A DNA stretch of 64,000 nucleotides from the NCBI RefSeq assembly GCF_002105155.1, contig NW_019029004.1:62001-126000 (forward strand). The letters are read 5' to 3'. The stretch comes from Lobosporangium transversale (lineage: Eukaryota). Shown here one piece after another: positions 4,162-19,971 of the stretch (its first letter is position 1; every line of letters starts with the position of its first letter). The notes under the pieces are model-generated. The model worked only from the letters and a program-made list of their open reading frames with translations, made no database searches and was not told the DNA's origin. Position numbers and translations under genes: made by a program.

Positions 4162-6588
4162 ATGGGAAGCAGCAGAACACCATCACGATGCCCATCACCT
4201 CGAACTGAACCGTATGAAAAGAAAGAAAGAAAAGGGGAAGCGAAGGAAGAGTCTTCAAGCACCAATGACCCTAAAATCCTCGAGCCAACCGAGCTAAAGA
4301 TTTTTTGTATTGTTGATGGAGAAGCTTCATGTTTTCCTGTAAATATTCCTTCTGATCGTTCAGTCGGCGAACTCAAGCAAGCCATCAAAGCAAAGAATAC
4401 CAATGCATTTAAGGACATCGACGCTTACCAGCTCACCCTCTACAAGGTCTCCATCCCTGACAAAGGCGAGGCTATCTTTGAGTCAGAAATCGAGTCAAAA
4501 GAGGCTCTCACAATCGCGTCAATGGAGCTTTGGGAGATATTTAATTCTGAACTTCCAAGGAAAACGATCCATGTTTTTGTCAAGCCACCGCAGCGAGGTA
4601 TATCTTTGGCTCTTGATGGACTGATTGTTGATATTTCCAGCTGATGAAGCTTGGTTTATATCTTAAACGGCCATGTGCATGATATCACCATTTGGTTTGT
4701 GTCTTGATAACTCAACATTCTTTCTCATTATTCGCTTTTGATACTTAGCTCAGAAAAGAAAACAAGATGGAGATTCTGGTGAGTGCTTTTGGCCGAGAAT
4801 CTGGTTATTGATCATTTTAGAGTGATGTGCAATAAATCAAAAATATTGACTTTGATCACTCTATCTCTTTTATCAGAGTCACCCTCTAAAAAAGCTCGTC
4901 CAAGTATAAGTAGAGATGCTCTTATGGATGCGATTACAGAAGCGGGGCTTGTAACGAAAGGGATAGTGAATGGTAGCCCTGCCATCTCGCGTCTAAGCTC
5001 GAAAGAGAGGGTCAAGCTGCTTTCGTACATGGGGGAGAGGTTATCAGTAGATAGTATTTACTACAGCATTATTAGCGTGGCTCGCGAGCTCCGAAATTCT
5101 GGTGGTATCAAGGGTTCCAAAATATTAGCAGATTATGTGATATCCAGTCTACCAGGGATGGATCTTCCGGTGATCGATGCGCAAGATCTATATGTAAGAA
5201 AGGAATTCAAGGATCTCTACGATTTAATCACCAAACAGTTTTGCAACGCTGAGGACGATGCACGAAACCGTATTGTTGTTACAGGGACGGCTGGTATAGG
5301 GAAGTCATCCTTTCTCATATATTTTGCCATCCGACTACTTGCAACCAGTACTGAGGATGATCCACCTATTGTCATCATCCAGCAAAAAGAGGATTCAATG
5401 TGCTACGCTTTTGGTGGGTCATCTACTGTTCAAAATGGAGATATAAAGGATTTCGCCGCCTTCCTAGACCTACCTAACACTTGGTTCCTAGTCGACAGCT
5501 CACCAAAGCCGGAGCTTAGGAAGGCTCGAACTATCTTCTCAGTATCACCAAAGACGTTATTTTCCGAGTCCAACATGTATCAAGAAATTGTAAAGAGGGT
5601 GGTATGGATTTATTACATGGCACCATGGGAGCTGGATGAGTTAAGACAGTGTAGAAAAATGGTTCGGACCTTTAACATCGTCAGCGAAGAATTTATGGTG
5701 GAACTCTATGAGAAGATAGGTGGTGTGCCAAGGTATGTTCTCGAGAAACCAGCGAGCCGACTGCACTTTAATAAAAAAGATCTTGATGGAGCTAGGAGGG
5801 TAGCATACAGTCGCGTAGAAGAAGCCCTCGACAACCTCAAGGATCCATTGAAGCTGTTACAATATTTTGAACAGGCCAAAGATTCACTACAATATAGCAG
5901 CCGACTTCTTCATCGTCGTCCAATAGGAGATCACCAGCAATTTGTGTTAGAGTGGGCCTCTAATCACATTCTCGAAAAGGTGTACGAAGCAGCGGACGAC
6001 AATACTTTTGATATGATATTGGATCGATTAGTCAATGGCAAAGTTGGAGTAGATCTAGGAGCTATGCTCGAGATATGTATACGTCGCATACTACGGAGAG
6101 GCGACTGTACCTTCGTGGCCAAGAGTCTAGATGTAGAGAAAAAGCAAGATATCACCATCACCATCGATGCCAAGCCGACGGTTAAATTCTTCGAAGCTTT
6201 TGATGTTTACAAGGAATCGATGAAAGGAGAACTATGGATCCCAAAAAGCAAGACTTTTGCCTGCGTTGATATGCTAATAGCGCCGAATTATCTACTCCAG
6301 ATTACGGTAAATGTAAAGCATGGTATCAAGAGTGAATCTTGCAAAGAACTTCTTAAAAAGCTTCAAGAAAAAAAGTGGATTCGCTCAGAGAAGGACGTTG
6401 TATTTATTTTTGTTGTTCCAAAAGCTAAGGCTGAGGAATATAAGAAACAAAAATTCAAGATTGGGGCTGGTCGGGTGGATCCTAAACCGACAAAAGAACT
6501 ATCAAGTATCAAGCAATATGTCATGGGGGTAGACTTAAACGCAGAATTACAGCGAGGTAGACTTGAGGGCAGAACTAAAGCGGTATAA
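4162..6588 (+). CDS. Crinkler (CRN/CR-effector) family protein, copy 1 (header A, linker X); exons 4162-4597, 4749-4778, 4877-6588, ~725 aa
   Basis: Ubl header IFCIVDGE...LKQAIK...LTLYKV...IHVFVKPP; Walker A GTAGIGKS; Walker B-like WFLVDS; YMAPWELDEL and GGVPRYV; REase-like WIPKSKTFACVD...LQIT...KHGI; GT-AG splicing keeps the frame. Confidence 0.9.
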
Positions 6589-6637
6589 AATAATAATTTG
6601 AGAATAGTACATCAAACTGCTTCCATAATAATTATAA

Positions 6638-17553: not shown

Positions 17554-19971
17554 ATGGGAAGCAGCAGAACACCATCACGATGCCCATCACCTCGAACTGA
17601 ACCGTATGAAAAGAAAGAAAGAAAAGGGGAAGCGAAGGAAGAGTCTTCAAGCACCAATGACCCTAAAATCCTCGAGCCAACCGAGCTAAAGATTTTTTGT
17701 ATTGTTGATGGAGAAGCTTCATGTTTTCCTGTAAATATTCCTTCTGATCGTTCAGTCGGCGAACTCAAGCAAGCCATCAAAGCAAAGAATACCAATGCAT
17801 TTAAGGACATCGACGCTTACCAGCTCACCCTCTACAAGGTCTCCATCCCTGACAAAGGCGAGGCTATCTTTGAGTCAGAAATCGAGTCAAAAGAGGCTCT
17901 CACAATCGCGTCAATGGAGCTTTGGGAGATATTTAATTCTGAACTTCCAAGGAAAACTATCCATGTTTTTGTCAAGCCACCGCAGCGAGGTATGTATTAG
18001 CTCTTGACGGACTGATAGTTATATTTTCAATTGATGAAGCTTGTTTGCTTATTTTCATGCCCAACACCATGTGATATCACGCCTTTTTTATGTTTGTTTC
18101 GTTGTAATACAGCTGTTTTATTTGTTATTGAGATGGATCTCACGTCAGGTTTTTACTTGGGGTATTGATGTGTTTGAGAAAACATAGAGATGCAACACTA
18201 ACATAGTCTTGATACTTTTCGATTTAATAAAACAGGTCAAAAGAGGGGTCGCGACAATTTTGAAGTCGACGAGGGCGACGAAACTTCCTCCAAAAGACCC
18301 AAAGTTGAAGAGGACAACTTAATCAAGGCAATTCGAGCAGCAGGACTTTCCGAAAAAGCCATAGTAGATGGGCGTGCCAACCTTCCTCGTCTTACAAGTA
18401 AAGAGTTGGTTTCGGTGCTTGAGAACATTGGAAGCAGAACATCAGAGGCCAACATCTTCCAAGCAATATCCCGAACAGCTTCCAGGCTAAAACGTTCATC
18501 TTTTGGAAAAGCAGATTATGTGATATCCAGTCCACCAGGGACAAGGCTTCCGGTGATCGATGCGCAAGATCTATATGTAAGAAAGGAATTCAAGGATCTC
18601 TACGATTTAATCACCAAACAGTTTTGCAACGCTGAGGACGATGCACGAAACCGTATTGTTGTTACAGGGACGGCTGGTATAGGGAAGTCATCCTTTCTCA
18701 TATATTTTGCCATCCGACTACTTGCAACCAGTACTGAGGATGATCCACCTATTGTCATCATCCAGCGAAAAGAAGATTCAATGTGCTACGCTTTTGGTGG
18801 GTCATCTACTGTTCAAAATGGAGATATAAAGGATTTCGCCGCCTTCCTAGAGCTACCTAACACTTGGTTCCTAGTCGACAGCTCACCAAAGCCGGAGCTT
18901 ATGGAGGCTCGAACTATCTTCTCAGTATCACCAAAGACGTTATTTTCCGAGTCCAACATGTATCAAGAAATTGTAAAGAGGGTGGTATGGATTTATTACA
19001 TGGCACCATGGGAGCTGGATGAGTTAAGACAGTGTAGAAAAATGGTTCGGACCTTTAACATCGTCAGCGAAGAATTTATGGTGGAACTCTATGAGAAGAT
19101 AGGTGGTGTGCCAAGGTATGTTCTCGAGAAACCAGCGAGCCGACTGCACTTTAATAAAAAAGATCTTGATGGAGCTAGGAGGGTAGCATACAGTCGCGTA
19201 GAAGAAGCCCTCGACAACCTCAAGGATCCATTGAAGCTGTTACAATATTTTGAACAGGCCAAAGATTCACTACAATATAGCAGCCGACTTCTTCATCGTC
19301 GTCCAATAGGAGATCACCAGCAATTTGTGTTAGAGTGGGCCTCTAATCACATTCTCGAAAAGGTGTACGAAGCAGCGGACGACAATACTTTTGATATGAT
19401 ATTGGATCGATTAGTCAATGGCAAAGTTGGAGTAGATCTAGGAGCTATGCTCGAGATATGTATACGTCGCATACTACGGAGAGGCGACTGTACCTTCGTG
19501 GCCAAGAGTCTAGATGTAGAGAAAAAGCAAGATATCACCATCACCATCGATGCCAAGCCGACGGTTAAATTCTTCGAAGCTTTTGATGTTTACAAGGAAT
19601 CGATGAAAGGAGAACTATGGATCCCAAAAAGCAAGACTTTTGCCTGCGTTGATATGCTAATAGCGCCGAATTATCTACTCCAGATTACGGCAAATGTAAA
19701 GCATGGTATCAAGAGTGAATCTTGCAAAGAACTTCTTAAAAAGCTTCAAGAAAAAAAGTGGATTCGCTCAGAGAAGGACGTTGTATTTATTTTTGTTGTT
19801 CCAAAAGCTAAGGCTGAGGAATATAAGAAACAAAAATTCAAGATTGGGGCTGGTCGGGTGGATCCTAAACCGACAAAAGAACTATCAAGTATCAAGCAAT
19901 ATGTCATGGGGGTAGACTTAAACGCAGAATTACAGCGAGGTAGACTTGAGGGCAGAACTAAAGCGGTATAA
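17554..19971 (+). CDS. Crinkler family protein, copy 3 (header A, linker Y); exons 17554-17989, 18236-19971, ~723 aa
   Basis: Donor gtatgt at 17990, branch-like cactaac, acceptor aacag at 18235; frame continues into ORF 18406-19971. Confidence 0.88.

Follow-up and report, generated by a model that had tools for sequence, protein, structure and literature searches.

A tandem array of Crinkler genes and decayed Helitron ends in a Mortierellaceae fungus, with gene copies that are likely recombination mosaics

Organization of the Locus

The window, which is the whole stretch of 64,000 nucleotides that was analysed, carries at positions 1-20020 three tandem units of ~6.7 kb each. The array holds three complete Crinkler (CRN) genes, each with its own upstream region. 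Its features, in window positions, are:

1-6637: further partial unit; the window start falls inside a unit
6638-13337: preceding repeat unit, same layout as the next
13338-20020, strandless: repeat unit of 6683 bp, comprising Helitron remnant, upstream region, CRN gene and 49-nt 3' flank
4162-6588, plus strand: CRN copy 1 (header A, linker X, core); exons 4162-4597, 4749-4778, 4877-6588; 725 aa
10865-13288, plus strand: CRN copy 2 (header B, linker X, core); exons 10865-11297, 11449-11478, 11577-13288; 724 aa
17554-19971, plus strand: CRN copy 3 (header A, linker Y, core); exons 17554-17989, 18236-19971; 723 aa
10976-11177, plus strand: header block B, 75.6% identical to A (4273-4477, 17665-17869), with identical flanks on both sides
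11178-11297 (also 4478-4597, 17870-17989), plus strand: shared header end S, ending in IHVFVKPPQR at the exon 1 donor
4598-5126 (also 11298-11826), plus strand: two introns, micro-exon and linker X, of a high-copy family normally joined to another core
17990-18546, plus strand: intron and linker Y; exon 2 residues 27-87 are a predicted folded helical domain
5112-5163 (also 11812-11863), plus strand: X-core joint, retaining the X-family SKIL and the Y-family ADYVI segments and 5 aa longer than either parent type
18510-19971 (also 5127-6588, 11827-13288), plus strand: core, a P-loop NTPase followed by a probable restriction-endonuclease-fold domain
13625-14800 (also ~6920-8100, 230-1400; limits approximate), minus strand: N-terminal fragment of a Helitron RepHel gene, decayed by stops and frameshifts
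13338-13365 (also 6638-6665), minus strand: Helitron-like 3' end; hairpin at 13349-13365, followed after 11 nt by a CTCG terminus at the repeat boundary
20020/20021, minus strand: right edge of the array, between A and T (empty site; a reading between T and T also fits); inner junctions read CTCG followed by T

The coding sequences of all three copies have GT/AG introns and are free of internal stops and indel errors. In a profile search, the Crinkler header (PF20147) scored above cut-off in 3/3 copies (E = 1.3e-22, 2.5e-16 and 1.3e-22), and exon 1 is closed by IHVFVKPP, a header-ending motif of the HVLVxxP type. The P-loop NTPase domain retains the Walker A lysine in 69/77 rows and the Walker B aspartate in 81/84 rows of the family alignment; its fold matches AAA+/STAND proteins (best Z 10.6; e.g., 1ksf, rmsd 4.3 over 208), and sequence searches of the PDB returned weak P-loop matches only. 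For the C-terminal domain, the model (pLDDT 92) gives a weak fold match (best Z 5.5, rmsd 5.0, 129 aligned), with restriction or repair endonucleases named in 13 of the best 25 rows, and D472 (56/57), Q482 (52/57), T484 (55/57) and H489 (53/59) are conserved. A Foldseek search with this domain gave no match at E 0.001. Judged from the model, the domain probably adopts a restriction-endonuclease fold. With a Crinkler header, an AAA+/STAND NTPase and a probable restriction-nuclease fold, the genes are CRNs, and their products are predicted to be nuclear NTPase-nuclease CR proteins; linkers X and Y each open with a basic stretch, which we take to be NLS-like. A hydrophobic N-terminal stretch is absent from the three copies, and signal peptides are not a CR feature according to the consulted part of a review (PMC5289972).

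Contigs from six of the nine sequencing runs found, none of them listed as RNA, were compared, one set comprising runs X1, X3, X5 and X7 and the other X3, X5, X8 and X9. Run X3 is probably RNA, which its GT..AG joints fit: both X introns appear there as such joints, possibly from X paralogues, as does the intron of copy 3. This agrees with the expectation that all three header-linker combinations stay in frame and can be spliced.

Block-wise Divergence Between the Copies

The original prediction placed header A in copies 1 and 3, B in copy 2, linker X in copies 1 and 2, and Y in copy 3, as sharp blocks that point mutation could not produce. Window permutation statistics support both points, and divergence is block-wise rather than gradual. 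Between copies 1 and 2 (4162-6637), 50 of the 52 differences fall inside one 205-nt window, where 10,000 permutations gave a maximum of 16; between copies 1 and 3, one 560-nt window holds 261 of the 277 differences (permutation maximum 95). The A/B block (4273-4477 vs 10976-11177) has 47 mismatches and 3 gap columns over 205 nt, and its flanks are identical at 111/111 and 120/120 bases. X and Y (4598-5126 vs 17990-18509) are 53.5% identical over ~530 nt, followed by 6 substitutions up to 18546, and they are homologous helical domains, not unrelated alternatives. Exon 3 of copies 1 and 2 differs at 5352 and 6308 only, as had been claimed. The supposedly invariant NTPase-nuclease core is confirmed for this pair, but past the Y block 6 positions distinguish copy 3 from copy 1 (5384, 5391, 5469, 5519, 5521 and 6308), giving Q/R, D/E, R/M, K/E and V/A.

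A combinatorial, mix-and-match arrangement is not established by these data, because there are three sequences with each variant private to one copy; the combination B-Y is absent from the window. The divergence of X and Y starts directly after the header-ending motif, and S is likely the crossover tract, equivalent to the HVLVxxP junction. Contigs of runs X1, X3, X5 and X7 stack in numbers at S, and no single contig joins any header to any linker across it.

Exchange Across the Family and the X-core Joint

Trees of the header, linker and core took in 22, 35 and 25 proteins, respectively, out of 156, with relatives below the score cut-offs left out. Header B groups with the header of P0006 from another genus, Entomortierella (99/98; 82 columns, long branch, unsettled bootstrap), and contig sequence over 11009-11179 matches B with 0 differences in 4/4 runs. 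The family does not bear out discrete cassettes with fixed borders on a fixed toxin core: within the header block P0003 is a mixture of A and B, and contigs depart from the A path at 17717 and 17824. Cores are exchanged, too, as P0004, P0005 and P0006 have related headers or linkers on other cores and P0001 has the same core with an unrelated header. The clusters of P0001-P0006 are singletons.

Linker X is identical to P0005 at 63/82 residues, there on a different core, and X-linker contigs in 4/4 runs continue into this other core, reading TAPEGRIF as in P0005. The pairing Y-core is carried by P0003, P0001, P0002 and run X8; in P0003, Y matches at 91/91 beneath a header that alternates A-like and B-like residues. 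In the linker tree, X groups with P0005 (98/85) and Y with P0003, P0001 and P0002 (97/95), and in the core tree the core of copy 1 groups with those of copy 3, P0001 and P0002, and that of P0005 with P0068 and P0078. The module trees are incongruent for X-core only. From these sequences we infer that Y-core is the ancestral linker-core pairing.

The X-core joint is the longest of 23 aligned rows, exceeding both parent types by 5 aa, and the homologous 5-aa segment duplicated there marks it as a fusion. As read from the sequence, X-core is an out-of-register fusion that needs one breakpoint. Segmental conversion from distant CRN paralogues, as originally proposed, stands insofar as paralogous donors exist; for X and Y it is not supported, since the joint is out of register and a single breakpoint suffices. 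The joint was not seen in runs X1, X3, X5 and X7, of which 4/4 have Y-type letters, at full depth, at 11859-11863; this is not evidence of absence because contigs drop rare variants. Among 206 candidates, a search with linker X gave no protein of 312-996 aa, and 155 pattern matches at metagenome loci yielded 0 confirmed.

A Helitron Remnant at the Unit Boundaries

Overlooked in the earlier reading of the locus was the Helitron remnant that bounds each repeat. The RepHel remnant matches the Helitron part of P0005 (tblastn, E 1e-21, 35%), another CRN, whose annotation shows a fusion with RepHel sequence and in which PF14214 scores above cut-off; in the spacer ORFs, PF14214 was found in 0/7 pieces. 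In the atlas, the first matches of the remnant score 0.96-0.97, and the nearest named cluster is Helitron_like_N (0.90, in 16% of members). Judged from its sequence, it would be a non-autonomous remnant at most.

Helitrons have a hairpin 10-12 nt before their 3' end (PMC5148889). The hairpin here lies 11 nt before the terminus (z -2.44; 1/200 shuffles equally good), and Rfam gave 0 matches in 13250-20400. The terminus itself reads CTCG, not the CTRR of Helitrons. Insertion between A and T agrees with the empty right edge, which reads A then T on the minus strand (T then T also fits), and the Helitron-like 3' end is absent after copy 3. A contig of run X3 bridges the CRN 3' UTR into the hairpin; run X8 reaches across the edge at 20020 by 22 nt only, too short for a bridge.

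Copy Number and Assembly Quality

Rough contig depths in run X5 are 8.8 for unique flank, 57.1 for Y-core, 58.5 for B, 81.5 for the 3' half of the core, 89.7-100.5 for the spacer and 259.7 for linker X. As a rough copy estimate only, contig depth suggests ~10 repeat units in one run. A reading of B and Y-core as single-copy was overturned by the depth of the unique flank. The depths of B and Y-core are similar in 3/3 DNA runs (58.5/57.1, 49.8/61.7 and 686/618), and B-Y might therefore be the common real unit elsewhere. RIP-type mutation was considered for run X9, in which 62 C>T and 65 G>A changes make up most of 134 places, and was dropped, as 20/20 G changed in one contig span fits a bisulfite-converted library.

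The assembly is locally error-prone. An alignment of the spacers preceding copies 2 and 3 has 0 substitutions and 17 single-base gaps, 7 of which are contradicted by a gap-free contig of run X5. Chimeras might have arisen if an array of ~10 near-identical units was collapsed and, together with paralogues dispersed elsewhere, tiled from a small number of long reads; A-X, B-X or the X-core joint would then not need to share one molecule. That the window begins within a unit, that depth implies more units than were assembled, and the possible B-Y units would also fit. However, overlap-based assembly should not create the X-core joint, because its apparent parents share no sequence overlap, the joint is found twice with the reading frame kept, and 6 private substitutions come after it. 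The coding sequences are moreover free of indel errors, P0003 has an independent mosaic header, and the run X3 contig spans the junction of CRN and hairpin. We regard chimeric assembly as unlikely.

Proposed History and Alternatives

Taken together, the locus is probably a tandem array of a 6.7-kb unit, made of a decayed Helitron end and a CRN gene, whose copies are mosaics that likely arose when members of a large multicopy CRN family recombined ectopically, rather than through a dedicated cassette system. In such a history, Y-core would be the old gene, and one out-of-register, in-frame joint would have placed the front part, about half, of an X-family paralogue on this core, a fusion that copies 1 and 2 inherited. 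Headers A and B would be old lineages, both in use, swapped by homologous crossover or conversion, with the exchange located inside the identical N-terminal and S tracts and with variable breakpoints. A Helitron end may then have inserted 49 nt behind a CRN stop codon, followed by head-to-tail amplification through rolling-circle copying and/or unequal crossover, and the amplified array would supply near-identical neighbours for exchange. More tentatively, and still short of probable, the locus might represent a Helitron-driven CRN shuffling platform in a true fungus, where the Helitron end amplifies units head-to-tail and, via rolling-circle copying and inter-unit exchange, brings header, linker and core together in every combination, B-Y among them.

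Alternatively, the whole unit could be a mobile non-autonomous Helitron with CRN cargo. Rolling-circle copying would then produce the array, and the mosaics, among them the non-homologous joint, would stem from template switching during that copying. The head-to-tail units do break exactly at the Helitron-like 3' end, spacer and core depths are alike in run X5, P0005 is another CRN annotated as fused to RepHel sequence, and a hypothesis of this kind has been published for Phytophthora (PMC5289972, in the part consulted). However, a 5' TC end was not located, and a unit taken as the element would begin with TT instead. The flank past 20020 is also above single-copy in run X5 (depth 37.6 at 20165), which fits an older CRN 3' flank that received a Helitron end, and we find a mobile unit improbable.

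Much less likely still is a selected repertoire of targeting modules that are converted onto a fixed toxin core, as in cassette antigenic variation. Sharp in-frame blocks with paralogous donors, and an A/B block flanked like a conversion tract by identical sequence on both sides, would suit it. However, B-Y is unseen, breakpoints vary and the core is exchanged as well; the probable RNA run contains B, X and Y alike, each gene has an upstream region of its own, the hydrophobic N-terminal stretch is lacking, and purifying selection alone predicts that in-frame copies survive. Least probable of all is concerted evolution, by which old paralogues were homogenised except in the blocks and nothing was imported: the tandem units are near-identical and the direction of the A/B exchange is not readable from three copies, but X and the core beneath it belong to different clades and the duplicated 5-aa segment is the mark of a fusion, which already disfavours this reading for X/Y.

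Significance and Comparison With Known Systems

CRN reassortment and tail-to-head arrays of CRNs and Helitrons are already known in Phytophthora, and the finding as first framed is not new, because CRN domain reassortment is well described. The locus adds a clean, recent snapshot in Mortierellaceae: neighbouring copies are near-identical, their breakpoints can be read, one fusion is non-homologous, and each repeat boundary has a Helitron end. If Helitrons are involved, the hypothesis that they drive CRN evolution becomes testable outside oomycetes; if the shuffling platform is real, it would be an independent cross-kingdom case of Helitron-mediated CRN evolution, directly testable in a culturable soil fungus. 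Mortierellaceae fungi are not known as plant pathogens, and the locus bears on the role of CRNs in such fungi, which might be microbial rivalry, selfish cargo or defence against invading DNA.

In cassette antigenic variation (vlsE, pilE/pilS, VSG), a surface antigen is expressed from a single site and the donors are silent. The array resembles it in that segments are exchanged between identical flanks; unlike there, the genes here are complete and all block types occur in the probable RNA run. Nor are there fixed cassette borders on an invariant scaffold, given the mosaic P0003, linker X on another core in P0005 and the departures at 17717 and 17824.

In the literature searched, there is no fungal report of CRN reassortment or CRN-Helitron arrays, although Zhang et al. 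(2016) may list Mortierella CR proteins, and the consulted part of a Rhizophagus TE preprint makes no CRN-Helitron link. The RHS family of Trypanosoma cruzi, a CR-superfamily multigene family of nuclear proteins with mosaics formed by ectopic recombination, unequal crossover and conversion (PMC7563717), resembles the CRN array in these mosaic genes; it differs in being subtelomeric and retrotransposon-associated, with Helitrons not mentioned in the part of the article consulted. In Pyrenophora tritici-repentis, ToxB-HLE arrays have a Helitron right end and stem-loop between copies, lacking after the last one, and rolling-circle copying plus unequal crossover were proposed (bioRxiv 10.1101/2025.11.13.688278). 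There as here, a fungal gene stands in tandem and the Helitron-type junction is missing after the final copy; unlike the CRNs, ToxB is a small secreted effector of a crop pathogen, and block mosaicism between copies is not described in the sections consulted.

The closest parallels are found in Phytophthora. In P. sojae and P. infestans, near-identical CRN N-termini occur on differing C-termini and the reverse, with crossover at the HVLVxxP-type header end and tandem duplication, according to the sections consulted (Shen et al., 2013, PMC3726527). Module swapping, crossover at the header end and tandem duplication recur here, but in a non-pathogen-type fungal family, with additional exchange within the header and where linker and NTPase meet, a header end that coincides with the intron donor, and one joint out of register. 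DC-domain CRNs of P. infestans lie in Helitron-rich regions in tail-to-head arrays, for which Helitron-mediated CRN evolution was hypothesised (Haas et al., 2009, as reported in the consulted part of PMC5289972). Similarly, the CRN copies described here lie head-to-tail beside Helitron sequence; unlike those arrays, they belong to another kingdom, each unit has a RepHel remnant and a 3' hairpin at its boundary, and neighbouring copies are mosaics of blocks.

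Tandem CRN genes and their domains

The window opens with three ~6.7-kb tandem units, the array ending at 20020, and each unit carries a CRN gene (at 4162, 10865 and 17554; 725, 724 and 723 aa). These genes combine header blocks A or B with intron-plus-linker types X or Y as A-X, B-X and A-Y, and all three combinations are in frame with GT/AG introns, as originally predicted. Exon 1 scores above the Pfam Crinkler cut-off in 3/3 copies, the relatives of these genes are Mortierellaceae, and exon 2 of copy 3 is identical to the Lobosporangium transversale protein P0003 over 147/147 residues. 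A search of 1.84 billion representatives with the core, i.e., the NTPase and the C-terminal part, yielded 1145 relatives at E 0.001; of the 32 longer relatives scanned, 22 have a Crinkler header. X and Y are helical domains homologous to each other, each preceded by a basic, NLS-like stretch; a hydrophobic N-terminal stretch is absent from the window CRN proteins. The exon 2 structure model (pLDDT 91, pTM 0.85) matches AAA+/STAND NTPases (best Z 10.6). The C-terminal domain, which contains conserved D, Q, T and H residues, reaches a best Z of only 5.5 when modelled alone, with named restriction/repair endonucleases in 13 of the best 25 rows. The CRNs are compatible with the NTPase+REase class of CR proteins described in PMC5289972, with a putative nuclease activity.

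The remaining window contains the following features:

32159-33765, Tc1/mariner element: transposase ORF 32385-33512 (+ strand; DDE_3 and HTH_Tnp_Tc3_2), inverted ends of 85 bp with 82% identity
20794-24964, 34878-35465, 37065-43273, 44876-45520 and 56420-60392, ordinary fungal genes: within these five spans, a 520-aa ORF (no assigned family), DEAD/ResIII helicase, RNA polymerase I A49 factor, PXA-RGS-PX sorting nexin, SH3 protein, Ydc2 resolvase and a DEAD helicase piece
47372-47419 and 49625-49670, two self-complementary simple repeats of ~45 nt

Mosaic blocks, headers and cores

Differences between copies are sharply clustered: 50 of the 52 separating copies 1 and 2 over 4162-6637 fall within a single 205-nt window (permutation maximum 16 per window; 10,000 permutations), and 261 of the 277 separating copies 1 and 3 within one of 560 nt (permutation maximum 95). 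A and B are 75.6% identical between flanks identical at 111/111 and 120/120 positions; X and Y are 53.5% identical. The sharp blocks of the original prediction are thereby borne out. Its invariant core holds in part: the differences at 5352 and 6308 were named correctly, but copy 3 has five further core substitutions (equivalents of 5384-5521), four of which alter a residue. Three sequences, in which each variant belongs to a single copy and B-Y does not occur, are too few to demonstrate the free combination claimed for these blocks. Outside the gene, the region upstream of copy 1 (62-4161) is set apart from its counterparts at the other two copies by 25-26 substitutions plus several short indel blocks, and is a candidate additional mosaic segment.

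Header B falls together with Entomortierella P0006 (99/98, on a long branch and with an unsettled bootstrap), and the two share a YPNITVD segment, which argues for A and B as old lineages. Their borders are not fixed, because the P0003 block alternates between A-like and B-like residues and contigs from sequencing runs diverge from A at 17717 and 17824. Nor is the core a fixed platform: P0004, P0005 and P0006 have related headers or linkers on other cores, and P0001 has the window core beneath an unrelated header. Within the core, at 12120-12570, contig depth rises (run X1, 618 to 930; run X5, 57 to 82) and a second contig of 146 nt shows 8 differences, which suggests additional paralogues joining the core part-way.

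Origin of the X-core joint

The Y-core pairing recurs in P0003, Haplosporangium P0001 (Y 75/91; core 112/132 and 295/354) and Entomortierella P0002, and a second organism in run X8 carries it at ~92% DNA identity; it is probably an old pairing. X matches P0005 at 63/82 residues, a same-species CRN annotated as fused to Helitron RepHel sequence, in which it sits ahead of a different core (58/132, 105/354), and X contigs stop matching at 11826 and continue with a P0005-like translation in 4/4 runs. The linker tree joins X with P0005 (98/85) and Y with P0003, P0001 and P0002 (97/95). In the core tree, copies 1 and 3 fall in one group with P0001 and P0002, and the P0005 core sits with P0068 and P0078, as does the P0005 linker. 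Because these trees place X and its core in different groups, X-core is taken to be the chimera. Its joint retains the X-family SKIL plus the homologous Y-family ADYVI segment, is five residues longer than either parent type (longest among 23 rows) and shows no overlap between the apparent parents, which points to an out-of-register fusion, for which a single breakpoint would suffice, rather than the homologous cassette conversion originally proposed. The expected donor paralogues do exist (X in P0005, Y-core in P0003/P0001/P0002, B-like header in P0006).

Independent sequencing runs

Header B recurs without a single difference in 4/4 runs, and X3, probably RNA, contains a B contig and GT..AG joints at all three introns, two in X and one in Y, although the X joints may come from X paralogues. 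With all block types in X3, none resembles a silent donor, and a likeness to antigenic variation is not supported. In X5, a unique flank has depth 8.8 (0 differences over 2738 nt), compared to 57.1 for Y-core, 58.5 for B, 81.5 for the core 3' half, 89.7-100.5 for the spacer between CRN genes and 259.7 for X, i.e., roughly 6-7 copies of Y-core and B, ~10 units and ~30 X linkers. In 3/3 DNA runs, B and Y-core reach similar depths, a hint that B-Y may exist, contig depth being unable to phase header with linker.

That some of the linkages are assembly chimeras is the less likely reading, but several observations count against real mosaics. No contig of the runs examined links header to linker, and the spacers ahead of copies 2 and 3 are 17 single-base gaps and 0 substitutions apart, with an X5 contig matching the copy 3 spacer gap-free across 7 of these, so array consensus quality is uneven. 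At 11859-11863, 4/4 runs show Y-type letters with full depth, although their contigs discard rare variants; the X-core joint is thus unconfirmed beyond the window. However, this joint is in frame, overlap-free and seen twice, which makes an assembly error less likely there than for the header-linker links.

A Helitron-derived end at the repeat boundary

The spacer contains a decayed minus-strand Helitron RepHel N-terminus: 14389-13667 matches the Helitron part of P0005 (tblastn, E 1e-21), which carries PF14214 immediately downstream. An adjoining ORF piece has atlas matches of 0.96-0.97, its nearest named cluster being Helitron_like_N (0.90; 16% of members); PF14214 itself matched 0/7 spacer pieces. 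A minus-strand hairpin (z -2.44) lies exactly at the repeat boundary, downstream of the RepHel remnant and 11 nt before a CTCG end; the last copy lacks it, and its edge reads A|T on the minus strand, where T|T also fits. Judged by the canonical criteria in PMC5148889 and PMC11417382, hairpin spacing and insertion target agree. Because the 3' end is CTCG instead of CTRR and a 5' TC terminus was not located, the element is best described as Helitron-derived rather than canonical. A fully mobile Helitron with CRN cargo is an unlikely reading, on a par with assembly chimeras.

The CRN-hairpin junction is real, since one X3 contig spans it, extending from the stop codon of the CRN through its 3' UTR into the hairpin (13289-13398, also 6589-6698); the transposon end may supply the transcript 3' region. 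A minus-strand CT..AC intron joint at 14939-15047 (X3, depth 2.9) suggests weak transcription and splicing of the RepHel remnant, which would run towards the upstream CRN copy in a convergent arrangement. P0005 (residues ~705-990), annotated as a CRN fused to RepHel in the same orientation, represents a second CRN-Helitron adjacency.

Proposed mechanism and known systems

Directly observed are the mosaic blocks and their paralogous sources, the splice joints, the multicopy depth, and the RepHel remnant with its hairpin at unit boundaries. The history that we favour, with some reservation, starts with the insertion of a Helitron end downstream of a CRN gene, after which the unit was amplified head-to-tail via rolling-circle copying and/or unequal crossover; headers would have been reassorted by homologous exchange within the shared N-terminal and header-end tracts, X-core would stem from a single non-homologous joint, and selection would have retained in-frame products. 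A selected cassette repertoire is very unlikely, and homogenisation alone still more so. The original prediction recognized real, well-marked CRN mosaicism and over-read it as antigenic variation.

Such mosaicism is of an already-known kind. For P. sojae, Shen et al. (2013; PMC3726527) describe all three patterns of N/C reassortment and a breakpoint at HVLVVVP, and T. cruzi RHS genes form mosaics via ectopic recombination and conversion (PMC7563717). PMC5289972, relaying Haas et al. (2009), places CRNs within Helitron-rich regions as tail-to-head copies and hypothesises Helitron-mediated CRN recombination. No fungal CRN-Helitron array was found in the literature searched, most subscription titles lying outside reach, and no comparable report on Mortierellaceae or Lobosporangium CRNs, judged partly from titles. 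More promising than the mosaicism is that, in a fungus, every repeat boundary has a Helitron end. The ToxB preprint (bioRxiv 10.1101/2025.11.13.688278) proposes a closely similar array, also fungal, whose stem-loop junction is likewise missing after the last copy.
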